DNA of 64,000 bases from Candidatus Sungiibacteriota bacterium (GTDB lineage: Bacteria > Patescibacteriota > Minisyncoccia > Sungbacterales > HO2-52-23). The stretch lies in the NCBI GenBank assembly GCA_016432465.1, contig CP066690.1, positions 398,823 through 462,822 on the forward strand. Reading direction: 5' to 3'. This document shows, piece by piece, positions 3,052-49,985 of this stretch (within the stretch, counting starts at the first letter, position 1; the number at the start of each line of letters is the position of its first letter). The translations under genes were made by a program, and so were the position numbers. Under the pieces are notes generated by a model. The model did not search any database and was not told the DNA's origin. It saw only the letters and a list, made by a program, of their open reading frames with translations.

Positions 3052-3504
3052 TCACTTTCCCCTGTTGGATTCCAGCATGGAACAGATCTGGAAAAGAAGC
3101 TCAGCAGACTTTATAGCCTCCGTCACCCATGGTCCATAACCAATTTTTTTGTAGAGCTTTTCTGCATCCTGCAGATACTGTGCCGCCGGCTTTCCACAAC
3201 GGACATTATCCGAACTTGTTACAACCTCGGAACAGGTCTGAAAAAGAAGCGCGGACGACTTAATAGCCTCCGTCACCCATGGTCCATAACCAATTTTTTT
3301 GTAGAGCTTTTCTGCATCCTGCAGATACTGTGCCGCCGGCTTTCCACAACGGACATTATCCGAACTTGTTACAACTTGCGGGCTCGACGATACCCCTGAA
3401 TTCCCGTGAGCCGCAGAGGATACAGTAGGGAAACCCAGAAACACAATACTAATAATAAGTACCAGCGCTACTAACCTGTAACCCCTTCCCAAAACTGAAG
3501 TCAT
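3052..3504 (-). CDS. Small secreted protein with an internal tandem duplication (about 49 aa repeated twice)
   Basis: Signal-peptide-like N-terminus. The protein repeats VVTSSDNVRCGKPAAQYLQDAEKLYKKIGYGPWVTEAIKS twice, encoded by a 2 x 150-bp DNA tandem repeat. Confidence 0.55.
   Translation of the reverse strand: MTSVLGRGYRLVALVLIISIVFLGFPTVSSAAHGNSGVSSSPQVVTSSDNVRCGKPAAQYLQDAEKLYKKIGYGPWVTEAIKSSALLFQTCSEVVTSSDNVRCGKPAAQYLQDAEKLYKKIGYGPWVTEAIKSAELLFQICSMLESNRGK
3079..3378. repeat. Tandem direct repeat, 2 x 150 bp
   Basis: Bases 3079-3228 and 3229-3378 are near-identical and lie inside the minus-strand ORF 3052..3504. Confidence 0.85.
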
Positions 3505-10495: not shown

Positions 10496-10631
10496 TCCCC
10501 CACCTATTCTGGATAAAACACAAATTAATACTAGGGCTGGGTAGCTCAGTTGGTAGAGCGAGGGAATCATAAACCCTAGGTCGTGGGTTCAATCCCCACC
10601 CCAGCCAAAACAATCCAGAATAGGTGGGGGA
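10496..10631. repeat. 16/17-bp perfect inverted repeat (tcccccacctattctgg / ccagaataggtggggga) enclosing a complete tRNA(CAT)
   Basis: Bases 10496-10512 and 10615-10631 are exact reverse complements. Confidence 0.75.
10535..10607 (+). tRNA. tRNA, anticodon CAT (Met/fMet or Ile2)
   Basis: Canonical cloverleaf: acceptor ggctggg/cccagcc, D arm gctcagttggtagagc, loop atCATaa, T arm gtgggttcaatccccac. No encoded CCA. Confidence 0.8.
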
Positions 10632-10727
10632 TGAAGTTCGATTCCCACCCCTGACAGTCAAAAAGATGGGAGGACAAACAAGCGTTAGGTCATAGGTTCA
10701 ATTCCTATCACCGGCACACGAAAAACC

Positions 10728-11567: not shown

Positions 11568-11677
11568 AACAGTAGCGGCCGCGAGTATATCTAAACAAAG
11601 CCCTCCGCTTGTCCCTAATAAAACGGCCATTAGAAACAGCCGGAAGTATTCGTCTCCTTGCCCGCCCCGCTTATAGC

Positions 11678-11752
11678 GGGCCGTTAGAACAGCCTGGAGT
11701 GTTCGTCTCCTTGTCACGGAGAAGGTCACGGGTTCAAATCCCGTACGGCCCG
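11678..11752 (+). tRNA. tRNA-Asp(GTC)
   Basis: Acceptor gggccgt/acggccc, D stem gaac/gttc, anticodon arm tctcc-ttGTCac-ggaga, T arm acgggttcaaatcccgt. No CCA. Confidence 0.75.
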
Positions 11753-11770
11753 CTATGTGCGGGGTTCATA

Positions 11771-12109
11771 GAGAAGGTCACGGGTTCAAATCCCGTACGG
11801 GATTTGAGGGGGCGAAAGATAAAGTCTTTCGCGGGAAATTTAGCGAGCCAGTGAAACTGTGCGAGCGTTAAAAATTTCCCGGGGTTTGCCGAGGAGGCAA
11901 ACTGAAAAACGCAAACTTCTTTGCGTTTTGAAAACCCGGGGTCAAAGCACTGCTTTGACGGGCATTTTAGCGAGCCGTCCTGAGTTTATCGAAGGACGTG
12001 CGAGCGTTAAGAAATGCCCGGGAATTTGTCGAGGAGACAAATTCGAAGGAGCGCGAAGCCTGCCGGAGGCAGTGCGTAGCGCGGGTGAGGAAAAATCCCG
12101 TACGGCCCG
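11771..12109 (+). repeat. Long variant of the tRNA-associated structured repeat element, flanked by duplicated tRNA-Asp T-arm/3'-end segments
   Basis: Bases 11771-11800 duplicate the tRNA-Asp T arm. The internal 45-nt unit gcgagcgttaa.aaat.cccggg..tttg.cgaggag.caaa occurs twice. The hairpin aaaacgcaaacttctttgcgtttt is followed by gaaaaccc. The element ends gcgggtgagga, followed by aaaatcccgtacggcccg, which duplicates 11735-11752. Confidence 0.6.
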
Positions 12110-12283
12110 TAGATAAAATAAAGTGGTGGCGCAAGCTACCATTTTATTTTGTCTTATGGGCTAGGCGAGATTTGAAGGGTATTCCAAAACGCAAACTGCT
12201 TTGCGTTTTGGAAACCCAGTTGGGATCACGTGTATTAGTATGATAACTGAATAAAAGGAGCCACTTTTCTGTGGCTCGATGAT

Positions 12284-13474: not shown

Positions 13475-14611
13475 ATGGAATTAGATATAGCACCAAAAAA
13501 AGAAGAGGAGTTAAGGGGAAAGCTCGCGAAAAAACACGACCCGGAAAGCGAACGACTGGTTCGTTTTCTTGCCATGCCCGATCTTTCCCGCACCACAGGA
13601 AGCCCTATTAATGAACTAGTACAGCGCATTATAAAGCTGAAGGATTTTGCGGACTTTGATATTATTCGGGTTCCGGAAATTGTGCCTGTGGATATAAGTT
13701 TTGATCTTTTTGATTTTCCGCAAGACCACCCGGCGCGCTCCCGGTCAGATACCTACTACGTGGACGAAAAACACATCCTGCGAACCCACACCACTATTAT
13801 GTGGTACTACTGGCTGAACGAGCCAGAAGTAAAAAGTAAAATTGAAAAAGGTAAAAGCATTGGTGCGTTATCATACGGGAAAGTGTACCGCAAAGACGAA
13901 ATAGACCGGCAGCATATGAACGTATTTCACCAGATGGATGGATGGTATCTTTGCCGGAAGGACGAAAAAATAATTACATCCGAAGATTTACAGAACGTGC
14001 TGGTTGAAATAGCCAAAGCGGTGTTTGGTAAGGACGTGAAATACCGCTTTAATGAAGATACGTTTCCGTATACGGACCCGAGTTTGGAAATGGAGATAGA
14101 AAAGAACGGAAAGTGGATTGAGGTACTGGGAAGTGGAGTAGTAAAGGGAAGCGTTCTTAAAAATTTGGGCGTTGACCCGAATCTTTATAACGGCTGGGCA
14201 TTCGGATTCGGCTTGGAGCGCTTGGCGATTGTAAGCATGGAACTGCCGGACATAAGATTGCTCTGGTCTGAGGACGAGCGCGTAAAAAAACAACTGCGCT
14301 TAGGAAATAAGTTTAAAGAAGTCAGTAAATTTCCCCCCATTACCCGCGACATTTCCTTTATTGTTGATAAAAACTTCATCCCCAATAATTATTTTGATCT
14401 GATAAGAGACATCGGCGGGAATATAGTTGAAGAGGTCCGGCTATTGGATAAATATGAAAATCCGGAAAAATTCGGCCCAGACAAAATAAGCTACACATAT
14501 CGAATCGTATACAGAAGCAACGAACGGACCCTCGAGACCAAAGGGGTAGATCCCATACAAGATAAGATATATCTGGAGACCAAAAAACAATTTAGGGCGG
14601 AACTTAGATAA
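13475..14611 (+). CDS. pheS: Phenylalanine--tRNA ligase alpha subunit
   Basis: Class II motif 3 FGFGLERLAI with upstream motifs. The 378-aa protein has N- and C-terminal extensions. Confidence 0.85.
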   Translation: MELDIAPKKEEELRGKLAKKHDPESERLVRFLAMPDLSRTTGSPINELVQRIIKLKDFADFDIIRVPEIVPVDISFDLFDFPQDHPARSRSDTYYVDEKHILRTHTTIMWYYWLNEPEVKSKIEKGKSIGALSYGKVYRKDEIDRQHMNVFHQMDGWYLCRKDEKIITSEDLQNVLVEIAKAVFGKDVKYRFNEDTFPYTDPSLEMEIEKNGKWIEVLGSGVVKGSVLKNLGVDPNLYNGWAFGFGLERLAIVSMELPDIRLLWSEDERVKKQLRLGNKFKEVSKFPPITRDISFIVDKNFIPNNYFDLIRDIGGNIVEEVRLLDKYENPEKFGPDKISYTYRIVYRSNERTLETKGVDPIQDKIYLETKKQFRAELR

Positions 14612-15572: not shown

Positions 15573-18500
15573 TTGGCAAAGAAAAAATCTAGGGCCAAAA
15601 CCAAAAAACGACTGCCCAAACGCCCTCCTCGTCAAAAAAGACGGACTATTAGGGCTGGGTCAAAAACCCCCACAACAAAATCCGGCGAATCGTATACAGC
15701 CAAAGACATTTATGTTTTGGAGGGACTAGAGCCGGTACGGAAACGTCCGGGAATGTATATCGGCTCAACCGGAGTTGACGGCCTGCATCATTTAATTTGG
15801 GAGGTGCTAGACAACAGTATTGACGAGGCTATGGCAGGATATGCCAAAAACGTCGCCATAACGCTTTTGGGGAACAATAAAGTAATGGTAATTGACGACG
15901 GTCGTGGAATACCGGTTGAAACACATAAACAAACAAAAAAATCGGCTTTAGAAACAGTAATGACCACGCTTCATGCCGGGGCCAAATTTGGAGGCGAGTC
16001 CTACAAGGTTTCCGGCGGACTTCACGGCGTAGGGGTTTCGGTTGTCAACGCTCTTTCTATTTGGATGAAAACGGAGGTGTGCCGTGACGGATATCAGTAT
16101 GCGCAGGAATATTCGCGCGGCAAACCCAAATATGCTGTAAAAAAAACGGGAAAGTGCCGAGGCTCCGGAACGGCAGTTACTTTTGAACCCGACCCAGAAG
16201 TATTTGAAAAAATACAGTTTGACTGGGAGCGAATCCTTGACCACATCAGACAACAGGCCTATCTCACCAAAGGAGTAAAAATTTCAGTGATTGACCGGCG
16301 AGAAGGCGGAAGGGCTAAAGATAATTCATCGCTCGAAACCCAATACTCGTTCTATTTTGAAGGTGGCATCATTTCCTATATTCAGTATCTCAACAGAAAC
16401 GAAGCACCCAAACACGAAAATATTTTTTATGTCTCTAAAGAGGCCGGTATCGACGGGAAAAAACTTTTAGTGGAGGCGGCTTTTCAGTATACGGACGATC
16501 TGCAAGGAAAAGAGGTTTCTTTTGCTAATAATATCCACACTGGCGAGGGCGGCATGCATCTTACCGGATTCCGTACCGCCCTAACACGCGCCTTAAACGA
16601 CTATGCCCGTAAAAATGAATACTTTAAAAAAGACGACGAAACACTTACCGGCGACGACGTACGCGAAGGAATTACTGCGATAATTTCTGTAAAATTGCGG
16701 GAGCCGCAGTTTGAAGGACAAACCAAGGCCAAACTTGGAAATCCCGAAGCGCGCACGGCCGTAGAAACAGTCGTGGGGGAATCAGTAAAAGAATGGCTGG
16801 AAAAATATCCGCGCGACGCGCAGGAAATTATTGGAAAAGCGCTTCTGGCGCAAAAAGCGCGAAAAGCTGCCAAGGCGGCGCGGGATACCGTACTGCGTAA
16901 AGGCGCGTTTGAGGGCCTAATGCTTCCGGGGAAACTTGCTGATTGCCAATCGCGCAATCCGGAGGAGTCGGAATTGTTTCTGGTGGAGGGGGATTCCGCA
17001 GGGGGCTGTTTTTCCGGAGACACAAAGATTGCCTTATTAGACGGACGCAATCTATCATTCAGAGAACTTATTCCAGAGGCAAGGGCTGGAAAAAAACATT
17101 ACTGTTACACCATGCGCAACGATGGAAGTATTAATATCGCTCAAATTGTAAATCCGCGTCTGACCAAAAGTAAAGCAGAAGTCATAAAAATTATCTTGGA
17201 TAACGACGAAGAAATTGTTTGTACCACAGATCATAAATTTATGTTGGCCGACGGCTCTTTTAAGGAGGCGCGGTGTCTGCAACCGCAAGATTCCCTTATG
17301 CCTCTATATCGTCAATTTTCTAAACTCGGAGGGCGAATCACTATTAAAGGATATGAGATGGTATACGACCCCCTTGAGCTCCGCTGGATTTTCACCCACC
17401 TTCTTTCTGACAGATATAATCTTGAACACAGCACCTACCTCGAAAGCGACGGCGCACATCGACACCACAAAGATTTTAACAAACTAAACAACAACCCAGA
17501 AAATATTATACGCCTCACCGATGAAAACCACTTAGAACTGCATCGGCGCTTAGCGAAAATGTTTCTTCATCGTCCAGAAATTCAGGCGAAAGCGACGGCT
17601 ACAAAACGCACGGCTACCTACCGAGAAATGGCACGCCAAAAGACACTTGAAAAAAAGGGGCTCTTTAGCAGAAACGCAAAAAAACAATGGGAAAATGATA
17701 CGTATAAACAATATATGTTGAAAAAGTTTCTGGAATTTTATAGGACACACGAGGAATATAGAAAAAAGAATAACCAGCTGCTTGATAAAATACAAAAGAA
17801 ATACTGGGCAGATGAGAAGAACAGAGAAAAACAGGCACTGCGGACAAAAGAATTTTTCATAACTAATCCGGACAGAAAAATACGGCTTGCCGAAATCGCA
17901 AAACAACAATGGAGAGATGAAAAACTGCTACGCTGGCGCGCGTCAAAAACGCGCGGGCAATGGACGCCGGAATTTCGAGTAAAACGATATGCTGCATATA
18001 ATCAGACGTATCTGCGCAAAGCCCTTGAAGTACTCAGGCAAATTTACGATAAATACGGGTCCGCCAGTGAACAGAAATACAACGAAATTCGCCAAAGGAC
18101 TGGTGATAGGAACTTAATTAGACTTTCAACAGTCTGCCAAAGGTTTTTTGAAAATGATCAAAAAAAACTTACAGAGGCAGTAATAAATTATAATCACAAG
18201 GTTAAAAAAGTAATTCCGTTAGCGGAGCATATAGATGTATACGACCTTGAAGTCCCGGAGACACACAACTTCGCACTGGCCTCCGGGGTGTTTGTCCATA
18301 ACAGCGCAAAGCAGGGCCGCGATAGAAAATTTCAGGCGATTCTGCCTCTTCGCGGAAAAATTTTAAATGTGGAAAAAGCGCGTCTGGACAAAATGCTCGC
18401 CTCCAAAGAAATTAAATCACTAATCATTGCTCTTGGCGCTGCCATTGGCGACGAATTTGACGAATCACGGCTCCGCTATCATCGCACCGTTATAATGACC

Positions 18501-18989
18501 GACGCTGACGTTGACGGCGCGCACATCCGAACCCTGCTTCTTACTCTTTTTTATCGCTATTTTCCAATCGTGGTTGAACGCGGTTACTTATATATAGCCC
18601 AACCGCCTTTGTATAGAATTCAGTCGGGGAGGGTTGTTCATTATGCCTATTCTGACGCGGAGAAAGATAAACTGGTTGCTGAATTTAAAAAGCAAAAATT
18701 AGAAACCAAACGCGTCCGGACAGAGGCTAAGGGTACCGAGGTGTCCGAAGAAGTAATGGAGGAAACAAAGGGTATTATTATTCAACGCTACAAAGGCTTG
18801 GGCGAGATGAATCCGTCCCAACTTTGGGAAACCACCATGGATCCGCAAATCCGTACCATGAAGCAGGTCACACTAGAAGACGCCACAGAAGCGGACAGAA
18901 TTTTTGATATTTTGATGGGGGACGAAGTGTTGCCGCGAAAGAAATTTATACAAACTCACGCCAAAGCAGTTAAAAATTTAGACATCTAA
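15573..18989 (+). CDS. gyrB: DNA gyrase subunit B, interrupted in-frame by an intein
   Basis: GHKL ATPase motifs (GLHHLIWEVLDNSIDEAMAGYA) and the TOPRIM motif EGDSAGG. C-terminal gyrB motifs are present. The protein is 1138 aa including a 432-aa intein. Confidence 0.9.
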   Translation: MAKKKSRAKTKKRLPKRPPRQKRRTIRAGSKTPTTKSGESYTAKDIYVLEGLEPVRKRPGMYIGSTGVDGLHHLIWEVLDNSIDEAMAGYAKNVAITLLGNNKVMVIDDGRGIPVETHKQTKKSALETVMTTLHAGAKFGGESYKVSGGLHGVGVSVVNALSIWMKTEVCRDGYQYAQEYSRGKPKYAVKKTGKCRGSGTAVTFEPDPEVFEKIQFDWERILDHIRQQAYLTKGVKISVIDRREGGRAKDNSSLETQYSFYFEGGIISYIQYLNRNEAPKHENIFYVSKEAGIDGKKLLVEAAFQYTDDLQGKEVSFANNIHTGEGGMHLTGFRTALTRALNDYARKNEYFKKDDETLTGDDVREGITAIISVKLREPQFEGQTKAKLGNPEARTAVETVVGESVKEWLEKYPRDAQEIIGKALLAQKARKAAKAARDTVLRKGAFEGLMLPGKLADCQSRNPEESELFLVEGDSAGGCFSGDTKIALLDGRNLSFRELIPEARAGKKHYCYTMRNDGSINIAQIVNPRLTKSKAEVIKIILDNDEEIVCTTDHKFMLADGSFKEARCLQPQDSLMPLYRQFSKLGGRITIKGYEMVYDPLELRWIFTHLLSDRYNLEHSTYLESDGAHRHHKDFNKLNNNPENIIRLTDENHLELHRRLAKMFLHRPEIQAKATATKRTATYREMARQKTLEKKGLFSRNAKKQWENDTYKQYMLKKFLEFYRTHEEYRKKNNQLLDKIQKKYWADEKNREKQALRTKEFFITNPDRKIRLAEIAKQQWRDEKLLRWRASKTRGQWTPEFRVKRYAAYNQTYLRKALEVLRQIYDKYGSASEQKYNEIRQRTGDRNLIRLSTVCQRFFENDQKKLTEAVINYNHKVKKVIPLAEHIDVYDLEVPETHNFALASGVFVHNSAKQGRDRKFQAILPLRGKILNVEKARLDKMLASKEIKSLIIALGAAIGDEFDESRLRYHRTVIMTDADVDGAHIRTLLLTLFYRYFPIVVERGYLYIAQPPLYRIQSGRVVHYAYSDAEKDKLVAEFKKQKLETKRVRTEAKGTEVSEEVMEETKGIIIQRYKGLGEMNPSQLWETTMDPQIRTMKQVTLEDATEADRIFDILMGDEVLPRKKFIQTHAKAVKNLDI
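17007..18302 (+). mobile_element. Intein (432 aa) with HNH-type homing endonuclease domain inside gyrB
   Basis: It starts with Cys right after EGDSAGG (CFSGDTKIALLDG, block A). It ends ...VFVHN followed by Ser (SAKQGRD). Its internal HNH-like motif is DGAHRHHKDFNKLNNNPENIIRLTDENHLELH. Confidence 0.8.
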
Positions 18990-40997: not shown

Positions 40998-41072
40998 TGG
41001 GGGATCTGCTAATTGGCAGGCGACTGGACTTTGGATCCAGAGATGAAGGTTCGAATCCTTCTCCCCCAGCCA
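40998..41072 (+). tRNA. tRNA-Gln(TTG)
   Basis: Acceptor tggggga/tccccca with discriminator g and CCA. The anticodon arm is ctgga-cttTGga-tccag and the T arm is gaaggttcgaatccttc. Confidence 0.7.
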
Positions 41073-41111
41073 AGTCTGACTTGGCCCAGCCAACCTCTGA
41101 CAAAATCCTGC

Positions 41112-41187
41112 TGCAGGGTCGGATAACTGGCAATCCAACGGACTGTTAATCCGTACGATGAGGGTTCGAATCCCTCCCCTGCAGCCA
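41112..41187 (+). tRNA. tRNA-Asn(GTT)
   Basis: Acceptor tgcaggg/ccctgca, anticodon arm acgga-ctGTTaa-tccgt, T arm gagggttcgaatccctc, CCA encoded. Confidence 0.75.
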
Positions 41188-41215
41188 ATCCTACTAATAG
41201 ATAGGGGATTCGAGT

Positions 41216-41291
41216 TGGGAGGTCGTCTAACTGGTAGGACGCCGGGCCCTGAACTCGGAAACCGAAGGTTCGAACCCTTCCCTCCCAACCA
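41216..41291 (+). tRNA. tRNA-Gln(CTG), with an atypical anticodon loop
   Basis: Acceptor tgggagg/cctccca, anticodon arm ccggg-ccCTGaa-ctcgg, T arm gaaggttcgaacccttc, CCA encoded. Confidence 0.55.
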
Positions 41292-41345
41292 AGCTAATCT
41301 TGGCCAACCAATTTGCTTTGCGTAACCTGCTTGACCATTATCTGT

Positions 41346-41419
41346 TGCGGGGAGAGCTGGCGCTCCCACCGGTCTCATAAGCCGAGTGGCGTGCGGTTCA
41401 ATTCCGCCCTCCGCAACCA
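41346..41419 (+). tRNA. tRNA, anticodon CAT (Met/Ile2), with a short D arm
   Basis: Acceptor tgcgggg/ctccgca, loop ctCATaa, T arm tgcggttcaattccgcc, CCA encoded. Confidence 0.6.
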
Positions 41420-41429
41420 AACTCCATGT

Positions 41430-41507
41430 CAGGGTGTCGCCCAGTCCGGCCAGGGCGCTTGGCTTGGGACCAAGAGGTCGTAGGTTCAAATCCTACCACC
41501 CTGACCA
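41430..41507 (+). tRNA. tRNA-Pro(TGG)
   Basis: Acceptor cagggtg/caccctg, D stem gccc/gggc, anticodon arm cttgg-ctTGGga-ccaag, T arm gtaggttcaaatcctac, CCA. Confidence 0.75.
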
Positions 41508-41540
41508 ACTCTTTTTTGATAAATCAGGACGCGTTTCAGT

Positions 41541-41616
41541 GGGGCCGTAGCTCAGTTGGGAGAGCGCCTGACCTGCAATCAGGGGGTCGTCGGTTCAAGT
41601 CCGACCGGTTCCACCA
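41541..41616 (+). tRNA. tRNA-Ala(TGC)
   Basis: Acceptor ggggccg/cggttcc with the G3:U70 pair, anticodon arm cctga-ccTGCaa-tcagg, T arm gtcggttcaagtccgac, CCA. Confidence 0.8.
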
Positions 41617-41643
41617 AAAACTTTTGGATGCAGTTCAAACGGG

Positions 41644-41720
41644 GCGGGTGTGGCCGAATGGCTAAGGCGCCAGCCTTCCAAGTTGGTTTTTTGTGGGTTC
41701 GAGTCCCACCACCCGCTCCA
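41644..41720 (+). tRNA. tRNA-Trp(CCA)
   Basis: Acceptor gcgggtg/cacccgc, anticodon arm ccagc-ctTCCAa-gttgg, T arm gtgggttcgagtcccac, CCA. Confidence 0.7.
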
Positions 41721-41863
41721 AATTTGATAAGAGGGACTCGAAGGGTATTTTAAAAAGCAAATGTTTTTGCTTTTTAAAAACCCAGGCTCCGAAGGAGCGC
41801 GGAGCCTCCGACAGAAGTCGGAGTGCGAAGCGCGAGTGAGGAGGAGTCCCACCACCCGCTCCA
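41721..41863 (+). repeat. tRNA-associated structured repeat element (copy 1) with a 20-nt duplication of the tRNA-Trp 3' end
   Basis: Core gggactcgaagggtatttt + hairpin aaaaagcaaatgtttttgcttttt + aaaaccc + ggctccgaaggagcgcggagcc + tccgacagaagtcggag + tgcgaagcgcgagtgaggagg. Then gagtcccaccacccgctcca, identical to 41701-41720. Confidence 0.7.
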
Positions 41864-41893
41864 AGACTTTTCTTCCCAGAGTCGAATATCGGT

Positions 41894-41968
41894 GGTGACC
41901 TTGGCCGAGAGACGAGGCATCGGACTGTGGCTCCGAGCACGTGGGTTTGAATCCCATAGGTCACCCCA
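41894..41968 (+). tRNA. tRNA-His(GTG) with encoded G-1
   Basis: g-gtgacct...aggtcac-c-cca; anticodon arm tcgga-ctGTGgc-tccga; T arm gtgggtttgaatcccat. Confidence 0.75.
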
Positions 41969-41980
41969 ACCCCTTCTGGT

Positions 41981-42056
41981 GTGGCTGTCGCCGAAATGGA
42001 CAGGCGCCAGATTGCAAATCTGGTCTATGCGGGTTCGAATCCCGTCAGCCACTCCA
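41981..42056 (+). tRNA. tRNA-Cys(GCA)
   Basis: Acceptor gtggctg/cagccac, anticodon arm ccaga-ttGCAaa-tctgg, T arm gcgggttcgaatcccgt, CCA. Confidence 0.75.
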
Positions 42057-42086
42057 AATCTGATCAACCAAACCACTTGAATCCGG

Positions 42087-42162
42087 GCCACGGTAGCTCA
42101 GACGGTAGAGCGCTGGTCTGAAGAACCGGAGGTCGCTAGCTCGAAACTAGCCCGTGGCACCA
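42087..42162 (+). tRNA. tRNA-Phe(GAA)
   Basis: Acceptor gccacgg/ccgtggc, D arm gctcagacggtagagc, anticodon arm ctggt-ctGAAga-accgg, T arm gctagctcgaaactagc, CCA. Confidence 0.8.
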
Positions 42163-42173
42163 AGATTCCCTGC

Positions 42174-42252
42174 GGTGGCGTAGCTTAGCCAGGCCTAAAG
42201 CGCCGGCCCGTCAAGCCGGAGGTCACGGGTTCGAATCCCGTCGCCATCGCCA
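42174..42252 (+). tRNA. tRNA-Asp(GTC)
   Basis: Acceptor ggtggcg/cgccatc, anticodon arm ccggc-ccGTCaa-gccgg, T arm acgggttcgaatcccgt, disc g, CCA. Confidence 0.7.
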
Positions 42253-42284
42253 AGTCTGACTTGGCCATCGCCAAATCGTTGAGT

Positions 42285-42359
42285 GGGCGGTTAGCTCAGC
42301 GGAAGAGCATCTCGTTTACACCGAGGGGGTCGTAGGTTCAAATCCTACACCGCCCACCA
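42285..42359 (+). tRNA. tRNA-Val(TAC)
   Basis: Acceptor gggcggt/accgccc, D arm gctcagcggaagagc, anticodon arm tctcg-ttTACac-cgagg, T arm gtaggttcaaatcctac, CCA. Confidence 0.75.
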
Positions 42360-42412
42360 AGTCTGACTTGGCCCGCCAAACAACACACTAAAATTAATAA
42401 CGGTAGGACAGC

Positions 42413-42499
42413 GGGTCGGAGCGGTGATGGGTGACACCAGCGGACTCCAAATCCGTCGACCAAATGGTCTTGGGGGTTCGAATCCTCCCCGGCCCGCCA
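42413..42499 (+). tRNA. Class II (long variable arm) tRNA with anticodon CCA; its body is near-identical to tRNA-Tyr
   Basis: Acceptor gggtcgg/ccggccc. Its D arm gagcggtgatgggtgacaccagc is identical to the Tyr tRNA at 42637. The anticodon arm is gcgga-ctCCAaa-tccgt. Long variable arm, T arm gggggttcgaatcctcc, CCA. Confidence 0.5.
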
Positions 42500-42535
42500 A
42501 GTCTGACTTGGCCCGCCAACCCAAAAAAATCCAGT

Positions 42536-42612
42536 GTGCCGTTAACTCAGCCCGGTAGAGTTCCAGACTCTTAATCTGGGAGCCAGAGGTTCGAATCCTC
42601 TACGGCACACCA
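42536..42612 (+). tRNA. tRNA-Lys(CTT)
   Basis: Acceptor gtgccgt/acggcac, anticodon arm ccaga-ctCTTaa-tctgg, T arm agaggttcgaatcctct, CCA. Confidence 0.75.
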
Positions 42613-42636
42613 AGTCTAAACCGAAATATCAGAGGT

Positions 42637-42724
42637 GGGTGGGAGCGGTGATGGGTGACACCAGCGGACTGTAACTCCGTGGGACCAAAAATCCTTGTAG
42701 GTTCAAATCCTACCCCACCCACCA
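42637..42724 (+). tRNA. tRNA-Tyr(GTA), class II
   Basis: Acceptor gggtggg/cccaccc, anticodon arm gcgga-ctGTAac-tccgt, long variable arm, T arm gtaggttcaaatcctac, CCA. Confidence 0.75.
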
Positions 42725-42748
42725 AACCCAAACAATAGAAACTCTTGT

Positions 42749-42831
42749 GCCGGGGTGGTGGAATTGGTAGACACTGCGGACTTAGGATCCGCTGGGCAAC
42801 CGTGCAGGTTCGAGTCCTGTCCCCGGCACCA
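42749..42831 (+). tRNA. tRNA-Leu(TAG), class II
   Basis: Acceptor gccgggg/ccccggc, anticodon arm gcgga-ctTAGga-tccgc, long variable arm, T arm gcaggttcgagtcctgt, CCA. Confidence 0.75.
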
Positions 42832-42842
42832 GATTTCCAAGT

Positions 42843-43070
42843 CGCGGGATGGCGGAACTTGGCAGACGCTCCAGATCGAGGGTCTGGTGGGAAACCGTGA
42901 GGGTTAAAATCCCGTCGCCATCGCCAAGTCTGACCAAACGGGATTTGAAGGGTATTTCAAAACATGAATGTCTTCATGTTTTGAAAACCCGGGTTCCGAA
43001 GGAGCGCGGAGCCTCCGACAGAAGTCGGAGTGCGAAGCGCGGGTGAGGAAAAATCCCTCTCCCGCGACCA
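42843..43070 (+). tRNA. tRNA-Leu(GAG)-like class II gene interrupted within its T loop by a 144-nt insertion
   Basis: The 5' part (42843-42913) has acceptor cgcggga, anticodon arm ccaga-tcGAGgg-tctgg and T stem/loop gagggttaaaatccc. The matching 3' part, aaaatccctc-tcccgcg-a-cca, is at 43050-43070. Confidence 0.5.
42914..43057 (+). repeat. tRNA-associated structured repeat element (copy 2) inserted in a tRNA T loop, carrying a tRNA-Asp-like 3' fragment
   Basis: gtcgccatcgccaagtctgacc resembles the tRNA-Asp 3' end plus the palindrome. Then the core ggatttgaagggtatttcaaaacatgaatgtcttcatgttttgaaaacccgggttccgaaggagcgcggagcctccgacagaagtcggagtgcgaagcgcgggtgagga; flanked by duplicated aaaatccc. Confidence 0.65.
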
Positions 43071-43097
43071 CACAAATAATTGTGACCAGCAGACAGA

Positions 43098-43175
43098 GCA
43101 CCCGTAGCTCAATCGGACTAGAGCGTCTGCCCTGTAAGCAGAGGGTTGTCAGTTCAAATCTGACCGGGTGCTCCA
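43098..43175 (+). tRNA. tRNA-Thr(TGT)
   Basis: Acceptor gcacccg/cgggtgc, anticodon arm tctgc-ccTGTaa-gcaga, T arm gtcagttcaaatctgac, CCA. Confidence 0.7.
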
Positions 43176-43219
43176 CCAAGCTCAGCTTGGTCCATCAATC
43201 CAGAGCTTGATATTCCGGT

Positions 43220-43306
43220 GGTGGGATGGCTGAGTCTGGCTTAAGGCAGCGGTTTGCTAAACCGTGGGCGAAAGCCTCGAGGGTTCAAATCCTTCTCCCA
43301 CCGCCA
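43220..43306 (+). tRNA. tRNA-Ser(GCT), class II
   Basis: Acceptor ggtggga/tcccacc, anticodon arm gcggt-ttGCTaa-accgt, long variable arm, T arm gagggttcaaatccttc, CCA. Confidence 0.7.
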
Positions 43307-43372
43307 AGTCTAACTTGGCTGGGGCCAAGTCTGATTTGATCACCAAAAACGAATTTCTTTTTGAAAATCAGG

Positions 43373-43448
43373 GCGCCCATAGCTCAGCGAATAGAGCGCC
43401 CCGCTACGGACGGGGAGGTCGCGGGTTTAAATCCTGCTGGGCGCTCCA
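43373..43448 (+). tRNA. tRNA-Arg(ACG)
   Basis: Acceptor gcgccca/tgggcgc, anticodon arm ccccg-ctACGga-cgggg, T arm gcgggtttaaatcctgc, CCA. Confidence 0.75.
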
Positions 43449-43458
43449 AATGCTCGGT

Positions 43459-43536
43459 GCCCGAGTAGCCCAACTGGCAGAGGCAGCGGACTTAAAATCC
43501 GAAAAGTGGTGGGTTCGAATCCCCCCTCGGGCACCA
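43459..43536 (+). tRNA. tRNA with anticodon TAA (Leu-like acceptor and T arm) but no long variable arm
   Basis: Acceptor gcccgag/ctcgggc with disc a and CCA; anticodon arm gcgga-ctTAAaa-tccga; variable region only about 5 nt; 78 nt total. Confidence 0.45.
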
Positions 43537-43549
43537 AATACTACAAAAT

Positions 43550-43680
43550 GGGATTCGAAGGGTATTTCAAAACATGAATGTCTTCATGTTTTGAAAACCC
43601 GGGCTCCGAAGGAGCGCGGAGCCTCCGACAGAAGTCGGAGTGCAAAGCGCGGGTGAGGAGGAATCCCCCCTCGGGCACCA
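43550..43680 (+). repeat. tRNA-associated structured repeat element (copy 3) with a 20-nt duplication of the upstream tRNA 3' end
   Basis: The core matches copy 2 almost exactly (ggattcgaagggtatttcaaaacatgaatgtcttcatgttttgaaaacccgggctccgaagg...gcgggtgaggagg). It is followed by gaatcccccctcgggcacca, which is identical to 43517-43536. Confidence 0.7.
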
Positions 43681-43702
43681 AAAGCGTCAAAGGAAACGCG
43701 GT

Positions 43703-43778
43703 GCAGGGATAGCTCAGTTGGTAGAGCACTGGACCGATAATCCAGAGGTCGATGGTTCGAACCCATCTCCCTGTACCA
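43703..43778 (+). tRNA. tRNA-Ile(GAT)
   Basis: Acceptor gcaggga/tccctgt, anticodon arm ctgga-ccGATaa-tccag, T arm gatggttcgaacccatc, CCA. Confidence 0.7.
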
Positions 43779-43817
43779 ACCAAAGTTCTTTTTAAAAACA
43801 ACCAAAATCTGACGTGG

Positions 43818-43896
43818 GGGCCCGTAGCTCAGCCAGGACCAGAGCAGGGGACTTCTAATCCTCTGGCCGGAGGTTCAAATCCTCCCGGGCCTACCA
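43818..43896 (+). tRNA. tRNA-Arg(TCT)
   Basis: Acceptor gggcccg/cgggcct, anticodon arm gggga-ctTCTaa-tcctc, T arm ggaggttcaaatcctcc, CCA. Confidence 0.7.
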
Positions 43897-48916: not shown

Positions 48917-48987
48917 TGGACCCAGGGAGAATCGAACTCCCGCTTGCGCAATGCGAATGCGCCGTTATGCCACTTAACTATGGGCCC
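48917..48987 (-). tRNA. tRNA-Ala(CGC)
   Basis: On the minus strand: acceptor gggccca/tgggtcc with G3:U70, anticodon arm gcgca-ttCGCat-tgcgc, T arm gggagttcgattctccc. No CCA. Confidence 0.7.
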
Positions 48988-48989
48988 TA

Positions 48990-49844
48990 TCACAAATTTA
49001 ATTTATTCTCTAGCGCGATCTTTGGGTAGAGATCAGTAGGATAAATTTCAACCAATTTAATGCTTTGCTTCTTGCAGAAGTTTCTTTTTCTTCTAACCTC
49101 TCTGTCGTATCGCGGACTGTCTTTTAAAAGACCAAAATATTCAACGAAGGTATTTCCTATTACCCAATCCGCGCGGAAATTCGTATCAGGATATCTGGTT
49201 CCCTTTAAATGCACTATGCCCCGTTTAGTTAACCAATTATCAATTATTGCTTCAGAGATAGAATCACATAAGTGCCCGTCAGATGCTTTTGCATTCATTC
49301 TTTTATACATGCGGTGACCGTGAGACCGATGGGGTTTTAAACCAGCAGCTAGAATTGTATCATTCCAAGAACCAAAATGTTTCCTTCCAGCCTCTGAAAT
49401 ATTTCTTAACTCTCTCCTCACTGGTACTCTCTTAAGTTCTTTGTGGGCAAGGCGGATCAGTTTCAAGACTTCTTTAGCTGTAAATCGGGTCCTTGCCAAA
49501 TAACCGCATTTCCGTGAACAATATTTGCCGTCTCGTTTAAACGTATTTCCGCAGGATAAACATGCCGTAGGGAGTCTGATCCTCTTTGGAAACCTTCGAT
49601 TATTTACCTGAGCCGCACAGGATCGAGAACAATAGTTATGTGCTGAAATATCATTTGGCTGCCGAGTAAATTCCGTCATGCAGTTTCCACAATTTACTAT
49701 CCTTGCCTTTGTCTTATACTGAAATTCGCAACTTCGAGAGCAATAAAAATTATGCCCAAATTTTAAATTCTCGTTTATTCTACCCCGACTTCTATAAATC
49801 GGGTTAGAGCACTTATTACAAGAAACTTTATATAGCTTTTCCAT
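48990..49844 (-). CDS. Multi-zinc-ribbon protein with C-terminal DUF559/Vsr-like endonuclease-fold region
   Basis: At least five CxxC/CxxxC pairs in the N-terminal 130 aa. The C-terminus RADWVIGNTFVEYFG resembles PD-(D/E)xK Vsr/DUF559 proteins. Confidence 0.4.
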   Translation of the reverse strand: MEKLYKVSCNKCSNPIYRSRGRINENLKFGHNFYCSRSCEFQYKTKARIVNCGNCMTEFTRQPNDISAHNYCSRSCAAQVNNRRFPKRIRLPTACLSCGNTFKRDGKYCSRKCGYLARTRFTAKEVLKLIRLAHKELKRVPVRRELRNISEAGRKHFGSWNDTILAAGLKPHRSHGHRMYKRMNAKASDGHLCDSISEAIIDNWLTKRGIVHLKGTRYPDTNFRADWVIGNTFVEYFGLLKDSPRYDREVRRKRNFCKKQSIKLVEIYPTDLYPKIALENKLNL

Positions 49845-49985
49845 ACCTACAAATATACTCGGGATACCCGGATTTGCACCGGGGCTACTGACCCCCGAAG
49901 CCAGCGTGCTACTGTTACACCATATCCCGAAAATTTTGGCGGGGGGCGATGCATGTTGCCGCTACACTAATCCCCGACAACTAAG

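Follow-up and report, generated by a model that had tools for sequence, protein, structure and literature searches.

The window analysed here, a stretch of 64,000 nucleotides from the genome of Candidatus Sungiibacteriota (CPR/Parcubacteria), holds five copies of a small element. Three copies of about 111 nt (W1, W2 and W3) are located in an array of 24 tRNA genes, a 295-nt multi-hairpin long variant lies at a tRNA-Asp site, and one additional copy is truncated (Table 1). All five had been proposed in a first-pass annotation of this DNA, and all were found at or close to the proposed coordinates. The conserved motif YCGAAGGAGCGCGRAGCC occurs four times in the window compared to 0.2 expected occurrences.

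Table 1. Element copies and associated tRNA features of the window. Core coordinates extend from the 5' arm to the junction.
Feature	Position	Strand	Evidence
Native tRNA-Asp(GTC), without encoded CCA	11678..11753	+	ARAGORN
Second partial tRNA-Asp copy, 30 nt, variable loop to acceptor start	11771..11800	+	
Long variant	11798..12092	+	CM 54.6 bits (3' part); fold z -7.3
17-nt downstream copy of tRNA-Asp 3' end	12093..12109	+	exact repeat, junction-anchored
Truncated copy, 5' arm and P2 only	12167..12222	+	CM 48.4 bits
tRNA-Gly(TCC), encoded CCA; W1 host, regenerated target	41644..41720	+	ARAGORN; Rfam tRNA 62.8 bits
12-nt spacer AATTTGATAAGA between tRNA-Gly and W1, like the ARTCTGAY trailers of the array	41721..41732	+	
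W1 core	41733..41843	+	alignment, structure, CM 131 bits
21-nt downstream copy of tRNA-Gly 3' end, from T-loop position 57	41844..41864	+	
5' part of split tRNA-Leu(GAG), up to T-loop	42843..42913	+	ARAGORN after in-silico removal
Foreign tRNA 3' end and 8-nt trailer, within inserted unit	42908..42934	+	
W2 core; 5' arm GGGATTT, end ...GTGAGGAA	42940..43050	+	alignment; CM 131.6 bits
True tRNA-Leu(GAG) 3' end AAATCCCTCTCCCGCGACCA, displaced fragment	43051..43070	+	
tRNA-Leu(TAA), W3 host	43459..43536	+	ARAGORN
W3 core; 5' arm GGGATTC	43550..43660	+	alignment; RNA fold z -5.95; CM 134.7 bits
22-nt downstream copy of tRNA-Leu(TAA) 3' end	43661..43682	+	exact repeat, junction-anchored

The host gene of W1 had been called tRNA-Trp; ARAGORN identified it as tRNA-Gly(TCC). 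The W1 core is composed of the 5' arm GGGACTC, J1/2 (GAA), hairpin P2, CTCC (P1b), the internal loop GAAGGA/GAGTGA, a GCGC helix, hairpin P4 and the end ...GTGAGGAG. The first base of this internal loop is A in W1 and G in the other copies. The 5' arm pairs with the first 7 nt of the downstream tRNA-Gly repeat to form P1, and the 5' arm of W2 pairs in the same way with the first 7 nt of the displaced Leu(GAG) fragment. At the tRNA-Asp site the second partial tRNA copy is fused directly to the 5' arm, which results in the hairpin TCAAATCCC-gtac-GGGATTTGA. The long variant has the same 5' arm and 3' core (GAAGGAGCGCG to GTGAGGAA) as the short copies and contains added hairpins, including two further copies of the module AGCG-AGCC-hairpin-GTGCGAGCG. 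A hairpin with a T-run that follows its downstream tRNA-Asp repeat is read as a putative terminator. The truncated copy is of the same kind as one found in locus L124 (4902-4974).

Using ARAGORN, no tRNA-Leu(GAG) was detected in the sequence as it stands, whereas removal of positions 42906-43049 (144 nt) in silico yielded a perfect one. What had been annotated as a Leu(GAG)-like gene is a tRNA-Leu(GAG) split by the insert, and W2 is a copy that destroys a tRNA gene. The foreign tRNA end within the insert is identical in 27 of 27 positions to 42234-42260 of the tRNA-Asp in the array. Because the W2 unit starts with these 27 nt of a tRNA-Asp 3' end and trailer, its origin is a different tRNA locus.

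In each of the 11 loci that have an exact upstream repeat, the element meets the repeat at C56|R57 of the T-loop, and the downstream copy begins at the same base as the upstream copy. Locus L052 shows this pattern with one mismatch (12 loci if it is counted). The bases before the junction in the upstream copy are GGTTC in 10 of the 11 loci and GGTTA in W2. The junction-anchored exact repeats comprise 21 nt in W1 (GAGTCCCACCACCCGCTCCAA), 22 nt in W3, 17 nt at tRNA-Asp and 7 nt at tRNA-Leu(GAG), where the longest exact repeat is 8 nt (AAAATCCC); the lengths of 20, 20, 17 and 8 nt given in the first-pass annotation were essentially right. It had also described the duplication as a segment from the T-loop to CCA. 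The start in the T-loop was correct, but CCA is not the general end: the duplication always extends from position 57 to the discriminator base or beyond, and outside the array, where the tRNAs have no encoded CCA, the repeat lacks CCA and may include trailer DNA. In the nine intact loci the shortest repeat has 17 nt and reaches exactly to the discriminator; the others have 21-22 nt or 28 nt. This is expected if the upstream copy must stay a working tRNA end. The only broken copy is that of L096, whose repeat is interrupted (14 and 8 nt).

The inserted unit begins at T-loop position 57 with a tRNA 3' end that replaces the original one; a spacer, often a terminator hairpin, and the conserved core of about 111 nt follow. 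It measures 136-234 bp, and 357 bp in the long form. The element always reads in the direction of the tRNA. Insertion restores the gene on the upstream side and leaves its original 3' end downstream of the unit as a displaced fragment, a pattern reported for tDNA islands (PMC4383910). Insertion at tRNA genes with regeneration of the 3' end and a displaced fragment, as first proposed for this locus, is borne out by the excision, the fixed junction, the empty and truncated Asp sites and the multiplicity of targets. A tRNA or tmRNA 3' fragment ends every copy, and the element sequence was not seen apart from such an association.

The core folds into a Y shape on the tRNA sense strand. In the alignment 99.6% of the paired cells are complementary, compared to 31-56% when the partners are slid, and 13 of the 40 pairs of the fold show double-sided changes. 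The compensatory first hairpin noticed from the letters of the window is real, with changes on both sides in 7 of 18 pairs across 12 copies. Paired positions contain four G-U cells, all of them G-U only on the tRNA sense strand, and no A-C cell, which identifies the sense strand as the folding strand. The helices covary and the purine-rich internal loops GAAGGA/GGGTGA are invariant. The closing helix joins the 5' arm to the T-loop half of the displaced fragment (its first 6-8 nt), so that the junction coincides exactly with the point at which P1b and P1 stack, opposite the branch. The first-pass annotation had missed the complementarity between the arm and the T-loop segment of the repeat, in which the arm varies along with the host tRNA (GGGACTC/GAGTCCC, GGGATTT/AAATCCC, GGGATTC/GAATCCC, GGAGTC/GACTCC and GG(G)AATC/GATTCC(C)); in L090 the pairing of arm and fragment is shifted in register (GGCTGGG/CCCAGCC). 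Between copies the P2 loop is flipped (tgtc or gaca). This flip and the presence of trailer DNA instead of CCA in the repeats, where CCA is not encoded, are signatures at the DNA level. Long perfect palindromes such as P2 can keep their pairing by template switching without selection on the fold.

A search of other genomes, as the first-pass annotation had suggested, revealed 11 more copies in metagenomes and CPR MAGs. tRNA-Asp accounts for six of them, at five distinct loci; tRNA-Arg and tmRNA have one copy each, and the other three lie at unidentified tRNA ends. Together with the window, the element thus occupies tRNA-Asp, Gly, Leu(GAG), Leu(TAA), Arg(GCG) and tmRNA genes besides at least three unidentified tRNA ends. 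The window, L053/L147, L104, L089/L122 and L102 carry a full copy at the syntenic Met-Asp-PheRS-GyrB locus; among close relatives, the copy of L124 is truncated, and L123 and L150 are empty, L150 with the same tRNA-Asp sequence. When the tRNA-Asp locus was approached through PheRS homologues (eight look-ups, seven usable loci), two of the seven carried a full copy, one a truncated copy and four none. The element is rare, considering that 241 million metagenome records and 185,579 genomes were searched. Copies within one genome are more alike than copies at the same tRNA in different genomes: P4 is common to W1-W3, and both P2 and P4 are common to L102 and L107 from one MAG. In L089, L096, L102 and L124 a terminator hairpin precedes the element 10-25 nt upstream of the 5' arm, and no convincing promoter was found in front of the arm in these four loci. 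No upstream repeat was detected within 1.1 kb in L065 or within 11 kb in L090. In L090/L126 the core and a tRNA fragment border a region that spans at least 11 kb and has genes for SIR2_2, DUF6119, PLDc_2 and an IS256-type transposase; neither a tRNA nor an upstream repeat is present in the contig. Relics of tRNA 3' halves are frequent in these genomes.

Rfam 15 at the gathering threshold reported only tRNAs in the window, and the Rfam ribozyme and intron families showed no similarity to the element even at E values up to 10. It was absent from IMG/VR and from phage and plasmid collections, and we found no description of an element of this kind in the literature. The units of 136-234 bp contain no ORF. 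Scanning of the flanking genes gave no Phage_integrase match and no other recombinase beside any copy. Among the roughly 36 of about 60 window genes scanned there was no integrase, no reverse transcriptase and no relevant type of transposase, and no TnpA, TnpB or IscB; the window covers 64 kb of the 923-kb genome. The L126 island likewise showed no integrase, and neither a circular form nor an autonomous relative was seen.

We favour, with a probability of about 0.5, the interpretation that these sequences are a family of non-autonomous, protein-less, T-loop-specific integrating elements of tRNA and tmRNA genes in CPR (Parcubacteria-type) bacteria. A non-autonomous mobile element was one of three candidates in the first-pass annotation and is the best fit among them. 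The core fold would serve as a cis-acting site for a recombinase or transposase encoded elsewhere, and the 5' arm would select or hold the T-loop target by base pairing. In moving, the unit may pass through a small and probably single-stranded circle, with recombination at the short sequence RANNCCC. A jump to a new tRNA would then leave a chimeric dead gene, as in W2, and the copies at essential genes would be those whose carried 3' end matches the host.

Several observations fit this scheme less easily. A simple crossover predicts chimeras like W2, whereas at least eight different targets carry perfect repeats of their own tRNA; additional steps such as gene conversion and selection, or a duplicative mechanism, would be needed. 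Although the displaced fragment should be free to decay, it has kept both its identity with the host tRNA and its pairing to the 5' arm. W2 and W3 are nearly identical, yet their spacers differ and resemble the native trailers of their own tRNAs, a poor fit to a unit that carries its spacer. L065 and L090 lack an upstream repeat within 1.1 kb and 11 kb, respectively, and no recombinase was found beside the copies.

A guide-directed form of mobile element is a quite unlikely variant. Here the 5' arm would be a programmable guide of 7-10 nt to the T-loop, as RNA or single-stranded DNA, placing the C56|R57 bond at the stacked P1b/P1 junction for strand transfer. The catalyst would be either a compact enzyme or the folded nucleic acid, and single guide changes would retarget the element to other tRNAs and tmRNA.

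The conserved fold could also belong to a functional small RNA linked to tRNAs, whose gene would be the core plus a tRNA-like 3' tail, transcribed together with the tRNA or by read-through from it. Such an RNA would have a role in tRNA metabolism (processing, decoy or sensing) with the closing helix and the single-stranded acceptor-strand tail as working parts, and its copies would have spread by tRNA gene duplication and recombination instead of transposition. As neither a promoter nor a terminator is present inside the array, transcription of W1-W3 must occur together with that of the tRNAs. The invariant purine-rich loops and covarying helices, the G-U cells on the sense strand only, the constant orientation, the host-identical tail paired with the arm even in the shifted register of L090, and the triplication of the apical module in the long variant are all in line with such an RNA. 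Nevertheless, we consider it unlikely in view of the sporadic distribution at the tRNA-Asp locus, the truncated copies, the rarity of the element, the terminator hairpin without a convincing promoter in four loci, and the tRNA gene destroyed by one copy. A co-transcribed structured RNA, another of the original candidates, is compatible with a non-autonomous mobile element.

The remaining candidate, decayed scars of a larger element, is disfavoured by the uniform size and the conserved fold. According to this explanation the core would be the conserved att-proximal terminal module of larger integrative islands, and the small units would remain after deletion of cargo and integrase. The gene-bearing region edged by the core in L090/L126, the missing upstream repeat in L065 and the frequent tRNA relics point in this direction; however, 11 loci in various genomes and at various tRNAs share the same compact layout with intact, highly similar cores, on which independent deletions would not converge. 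As the L126 island also lacks a visible integrase and, attachment arms of tyrosine integrases are not known to need covarying hairpins, the scar explanation is very doubtful. Least probable of all appears an element acting at the RNA level, with the core as a guide-bearing ribozyme or intron-like RNA whose 5' arm pairs with T-loop positions R57-C63. It would cleave or ligate at C56|R57, either splicing itself from the tRNA precursor or joining tRNA 3' fragments, and the genomic copies would be retro-inserted products. The position of the junction opposite the three-way junction would suit such a catalyst, the arm is complementary to 7 nt of the downstream and 10 nt of the upstream T-loop sequence, splicing would rescue tRNA-Leu(GAG), and precedents exist in theta ribozymes beside tRNAs (PMC10879173) and group I introns in Patescibacteria tRNAs (PMC13011429). 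Yet the core resembles no Rfam ribozyme or intron, about 111 nt are too small for a group I intron, and the upstream tRNA is complete in most loci, which makes splicing unnecessary. The genomic trailer in place of CCA shows that mature tRNA was not the template of the repeats; a reverse transcriptase was not observed, and group II introns are reported to be absent from Patescibacteria (PMC13011429).

If the integrating-element interpretation is correct, a protein-less unit of about 140 bp with a regenerated gene and a displaced fragment would be the smallest such element known to us, and would show selfish DNA in very small CPR genomes aimed at the 10 most conserved bases of tRNA. Large islands that carry an integrase classically land in tRNA and tmRNA genes. 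A closing helix that is built with the target sequence and changes with the target suggests target recognition by base pairing, which, if true, would be of mechanistic and possibly technological interest; under the guide-directed reading, CPR bacteria would possess a new class of insertion system of their own that is guided by nucleic acid. In annotation, the tRNA-Leu(GAG) gene is concealed by the insert, which also creates tRNA fragments that are open to misreading.

Like Islander-type tDNA islands and prophages of the T-loop class (e.g. mycobacteriophage Ms6), the element occupies the 3' part of a tRNA or tmRNA gene, and the crossover region is located in the T-loop. In tDNA islands the element supplies a new 3' end and the original stays as a displaced direct repeat (PMC4383910, PMC1762012). 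The corresponding regenerated and displaced repeats were found here in nine intact loci (17-28 nt), excision in silico restored tRNA-Leu(GAG), and the repeats run, as in the islands, from the T-loop to the gene end or slightly past it. The element differs in having units of 136-234 bp instead of kilobases, in the use of many different tRNAs by one family, and in a covarying folded core that adjoins the junction and pairs with the displaced fragment. Unlike a tyrosine-integrase island, the units contain no ORF and the flanking genes scanned no Phage_integrase.

With MITEs and other non-autonomous bacterial transposons it has in common the small size, the lack of proteins, several copies per genome, short inverted arms and a presumed mobilisation in trans. 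Unlike in MITEs, the right inverted arm is part of the target and the left arm changes with it, and the flanking repeats are always a tRNA 3' end. An assignment to MITEs fails because the 7-nt arms vary with the host T-loop instead of forming constant terminal inverted repeats, and because the anchored repeats (7, 17, 21, 22 and 28 nt) are no fixed short target-site duplication.

HUH transposons (IS91; IS200/IS605 and PATE) would be comparable in their strand-specific action, subterminal hairpins and single-stranded circles. Their one-ended transposition also mobilises adjacent DNA, similar to the Asp end that W2 carries. IS91-family elements (IS801, IS1294 and also IS91) target GTTC (PMC13181058). 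Insertion 3' of GTTC was likewise found here, in the GGTTC context given above (GTTC/CTTG being the IS91-type site; GGTTA in W2), although this may be a coincidence, GTTC being a universal T-loop sequence. The element ends with GTGAGGAR and not with a GTTC/CTCG-type terminus. In IS608, guide bases beside the foot of a hairpin pair with the cleavage site; the arm pairing described here comprises 6-8 Watson-Crick pairs. The element differs from IS91 and rolling-circle HUH families, which make no flanking duplication, in the presence of flanking repeats; the genes scanned contain no Y1 or Y2 transposase, and the ends are unlike oriIS/terIS.

Theta (HDV-like) ribozymes located 3' of phage tRNAs (PMC10879173) and group I introns are structured RNAs beside or within tRNA genes, where the element is located too. 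Patescibacteria are known for tRNA introns (PMC13011429), and group I introns also occur in a tmRNA T-loop. The introns of Patescibacteria are located at anticodon position 35/36, the element in the T-loop, and neither theta ribozymes nor group I introns duplicate the tRNA 3' end as the element does. A group I intron (P3-P9 core, more than 200 nt, Intron_gpI) does not agree with a core of about 111 nt without a match at E up to 10. For self-cleaving ribozymes (hammerhead, twister, pistol, hatchet and HDV-like/theta) there was no Rfam match, and by inspection the strand order of the junction does not fit a hammerhead.

The integron attC site does not match either, since by inspection the ends contain no R''/R' core (RYYYAAC/GTTRRRY); the element also differs from integron cassettes by the lack of a cassette ORF and integron integrase and by the tRNA T-loop as target. 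attC is a folded single-strand recombination site in which structure rather than sequence is conserved, and its crossover at the edge of the closing helix makes the far strand come from the recipient site. In the same manner, the closing helix of the element takes its far strand from the target side.

The region 42830-43100 of the window, as it stands, gives no tRNA with ARAGORN. When positions 42906-43049 were deleted in silico, the program called a tRNA-Leu(GAG) whose acceptor and T stems pair perfectly. W2, one of the element copies in the tRNA array, is an insertion inside a tRNA gene. The first 27 nt of its 144-nt unit (replacement tRNA 3' end, spacer and core) are identical to the 3' end of the array tRNA-Asp plus the first 8 trailer bases, and therefore the unit arrived from a tRNA-Asp locus, joining at the short sequence AAATCCC. 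With an outer part of the Asp type and an interior of the W3 type, W2 looks like a chimera. The copies reported by the first-pass annotation, W1 to W3 within the array and a long variant and a truncated copy after the native tRNA-Asp, were all confirmed. The flanking duplications it described proved exact, with junction-anchored lengths of 21, 22, 17 and 7 nt (for the fourth, the longest exact repeat without this anchoring measures 8 nt); the host of W1, taken for tRNA-Trp, had to be corrected to tRNA-Gly(TCC) according to ARAGORN. The predicted fold of the long variant contains nine hairpins (z -7.3), and its apical module is triplicated.

Positions of the element copies and of further features (window positions, except where a locus outside the window is named)
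Feature	Position	Observation
W1, copy in tRNA array	41733-41843	
W2, copy in tRNA array	42940-43050	
W3, copy in tRNA array	43550-43660	
Native tRNA-Asp	11678-11753	
Long variant	11798-12092	
Truncated copy	12167-12222	
tRNA array	40998-43896	24 of the 28 tRNA genes in the window (ARAGORN)
Trailer AGTCTGAC	41073-41100, 41292-41315, 42253-42280, 42360-42385, 42500-42525, 43176-43200, 43307-43345	Also after the tmRNA in L107
tRNA with long variable arm	42413-42499	Anticodon CCA (Trp); first 44 nt 91% identical to neighbouring tRNA-Tyr; Rfam tRNA-Sec score just above threshold
tRNA-like sequence	41345-41420	CAT anticodon, CCA end; no call by ARAGORN and Rfam
tRNA relics	10620-10720 and 11635-11660	tRNA 3'-half relics after tRNA-Met and partial 5' tRNA-Asp copy upstream of the gene
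PheRS	13475-14611	Single-chain mitochondrial type, tRNA-synt_2d plus FDX-ACB, 378 aa, as in its homologues in this CPR clade
GyrB	15573-18989	Interrupted by an intein, also present in L147, absent from L123, L124 and L150
ORF with homing-endonuclease-associated repeat (HNH_repeat)	48990-49844	Wedged between tRNA-Ala (48917-48987) and tRNA-Pro (49858-49930)
147-nt unit	3079-3375	Two tandem copies, 95% identical, opposite strand to an ORF
Interruption of downstream tRNA-Asp repeat	L096, 6335-6460 region (oriented 1649-1700)	26-nt hairpin ACGTCCCTCCGTTCGCGAACGGAGGG
Defence-like island	L126, 8325-19287	Abuts the element copy; SIR2_2, DUF6119, PLDc_2, DUF5677-like, IS256-type transposase

An exact upstream repeat is present in 11 loci. 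In these it starts at T-loop position 57, immediately 3' of GGTTC (GGTTA in W2), and the 3' end of the element, ...GTGAGGA-R, directly precedes the downstream repeat. The metagenomic locus L052 shows the same junction pattern with one mismatch, and two copies, L065 and L090/L126, have no upstream repeat within 1.1 kb and 11 kb, respectively. The repeats are 17 nt long, reaching exactly through the discriminator, or 21-22 nt or 28 nt; in L096 the repeat is split into 14 and 8 nt by a 26-nt insert. Unit lengths range from 136 to 234 bp, and a terminator-like hairpin often separates the element from the tRNA upstream of it. At the tmRNA locus the native CCA and the trailer hairpin are kept in the downstream copy and the upstream copy has no CCA; the downstream copy is therefore the original end. 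At loci lacking an encoded CCA, trailer DNA is included in the repeat, which must therefore have been copied from DNA or a precursor; mature tRNA was ruled out as the source, since the repeats carry trailer DNA and no CCA. In most copies the repeats match the respective host tRNA perfectly, although a chimera like W2 would be expected from a jump, and no decay of the displaced fragment was seen.

The search for copies in other genomes, proposed in the first-pass annotation, was performed as a two-anchor pattern scan of metagenomes and one genome per species and revealed 11 more true copies. These are L052, L053 and L065, the loci L089, L094, L102, L104, L107 and L115 in MAGs labelled Ca. Saccharibacteria, and L090 and L096 in a GC-rich MAG, where the hairpins differ and the core motifs are the same. 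At six additional loci (five distinct) the host is the tRNA-Asp of the syntenic Met-Asp-PheRS-GyrB region; tRNA-Arg(GCG), the tmRNA and unidentified tRNA 3' ends also serve as hosts. No Rfam family matched the element. Scans of IMG/VR viral contigs gave chance or coding matches for the core motifs and chance matches for the array trailer hairpin CCAAGTCTGACTTGGC, and a BLAST search with W3 against phage and plasmid collections gave no match. Using PheRS homologues to sample the tRNA-Asp locus, we found full copies in L122 and L147 (the latter repeats the L053 sequence), a truncated copy reduced to the 5' arm and P2 in L124, like that of the window, and empty sites in L123 and L150, the tRNA-Asp sequence of L150 being that of the window. 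The element is dispensable.

A consensus fold was obtained from an alignment of 12 short copies. In this fold the 5' arm pairs with 6-8 nt at the start of the downstream repeat (P1), with GAA as J1/2, and a CTCC/GGAG pairing (P1b) is stacked on P1; P2 is a long hairpin and P4 a variable one. A GCGC/GCGC helix, a 3x3 loop and a 6x6 internal loop GAAGGA/GGGTGA, termed invariant (GAGTGA in W1), complete the consensus. Paired cells amounted to 99.6%, compared with 31-56% when the partners were slid, and double-sided changes occurred in 13 of 40 pairs. The observed covariation was reached in 0 of 500 shuffles, and the compensatory stem noticed earlier was confirmed. Four cells are G-U and none is A-C; the folded strand is therefore the tRNA sense strand. 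Column 56/113 of P1b goes from C-G to T-A jointly with column 8/114 of P1, and the four T-A copies may share common ancestry. Perfect palindromes such as P2 can correct themselves by template switching, and the flipped P2 loop (tgtc versus gaca) points to such events at the DNA level. The sequence of the 5' arm tracks the host T-loop, and in L090 its pairing with the fragment is shifted in register. A local hairpin GGCTCC...GGAGCC, the MFE structure of single copies, was dropped because it has C-A mismatches in most copies and the alignment supports CTCC with the 3' GGAG. By inspection, the junction and loops did not fit a hammerhead, HDV-like, kink-turn or sarcin-ricin motif, and a similarity to retron msr (TTAGCGAG) was judged to be chance, RT being absent.

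A domain scan of the window identified GyrB with an intein, ATP-dependent DNA ligase, LeuRS, monomeric PheRS, GatA, CCA-adding enzyme and metabolic enzymes. The tRNA array and the aaRS genes first raised the suspicion of a phage origin, which was rejected: PheRS and patatin show 100% identity to proteins encoded on a 923-kb contig of a Ca. Sungiibacteriota MAG, and the window is therefore a CPR (Parcubacteria-type) chromosome. The PheRS of this clade is highly conserved over thousands of metagenomic proteins. No relatives of the LeuRS were found in IMG/VR, and a similarity search with the whole array against the phage collection matched individual tRNAs only. CCA is encoded in 24/24 array tRNAs and is absent from the scattered tRNA genes, and neither a promoter nor a terminator was found inside the array. 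A search through patatin homologues for an array without the element led to a closest relative with no array at all beside patatin; the array could therefore have been acquired in its own right.

The sequence AGTCTGAC(TTGG) follows many of the tRNAs in the array and forms, together with their CCA ends, the hairpin (G)CCAAGTctgACTTGG(C). Located 3' of it is a repeat of the terminal 7-10 nt of a tRNA 3' end, which after tRNA-Val comes from a different tRNA. This arrangement may be a miniature analogue of the element or a processing signal. The tRNA with the long variable arm is possibly a Tyr-derived tRNA reading UGG, the tRNA-like sequence is probably a pseudo-tRNA, and the relics indicate that tRNA loci have been rearranged repeatedly.

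The best reading, to which we assign a probability of about 0.5, is a non-autonomous, T-loop-specific insertion element. It is supported by the finding for W2, by the number of different targets, by sites that are empty or hold a truncated copy, and by the resemblance among copies within a genome. The junction sits at a defined structural point, and in the predicted fold the closing helix is built partly from target sequence. The fold would be a cis-acting site for a trans-acting enzyme, and the choice of target may be aided by base pairing. A functional small RNA linked to the tRNAs is unlikely, and for a guide-bearing ribozyme or intron-like RNA we see very little chance. That the copies are terminal modules or scars of larger islands is improbable: the copy without upstream repeat in L090/L126 edges an island of defence genes, at least 11 kb long, but this island has no integrase. 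An autonomous element was sought in the island upstream of this copy, and neither an integrase nor an HUH enzyme was found before the contig ends, ahead of any tRNA.

The insertion-element reading can be compared with known systems. The group I introns of Patescibacteria lie at anticodon position 35/36 (PMC13011429), and their mechanism was dropped as unrelated. IS91-family rolling-circle elements have a GTTC target (PMC13181058), matching the GTTC that precedes the junction here, and both the strand bias and the small size would agree with a mechanism acting on single strands; since those elements make no repeats, in contrast to the copies described here, and no such transposase was found, this link is a lead only. 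In tDNA islands a regenerated target is accompanied by a displaced fragment (PMC4383910). The layout found here is alike, except that the element is shrunk to ~140 bp and carries no integrase, and the crossover within the T-loop is shared with Ms6 (PMC1762012).
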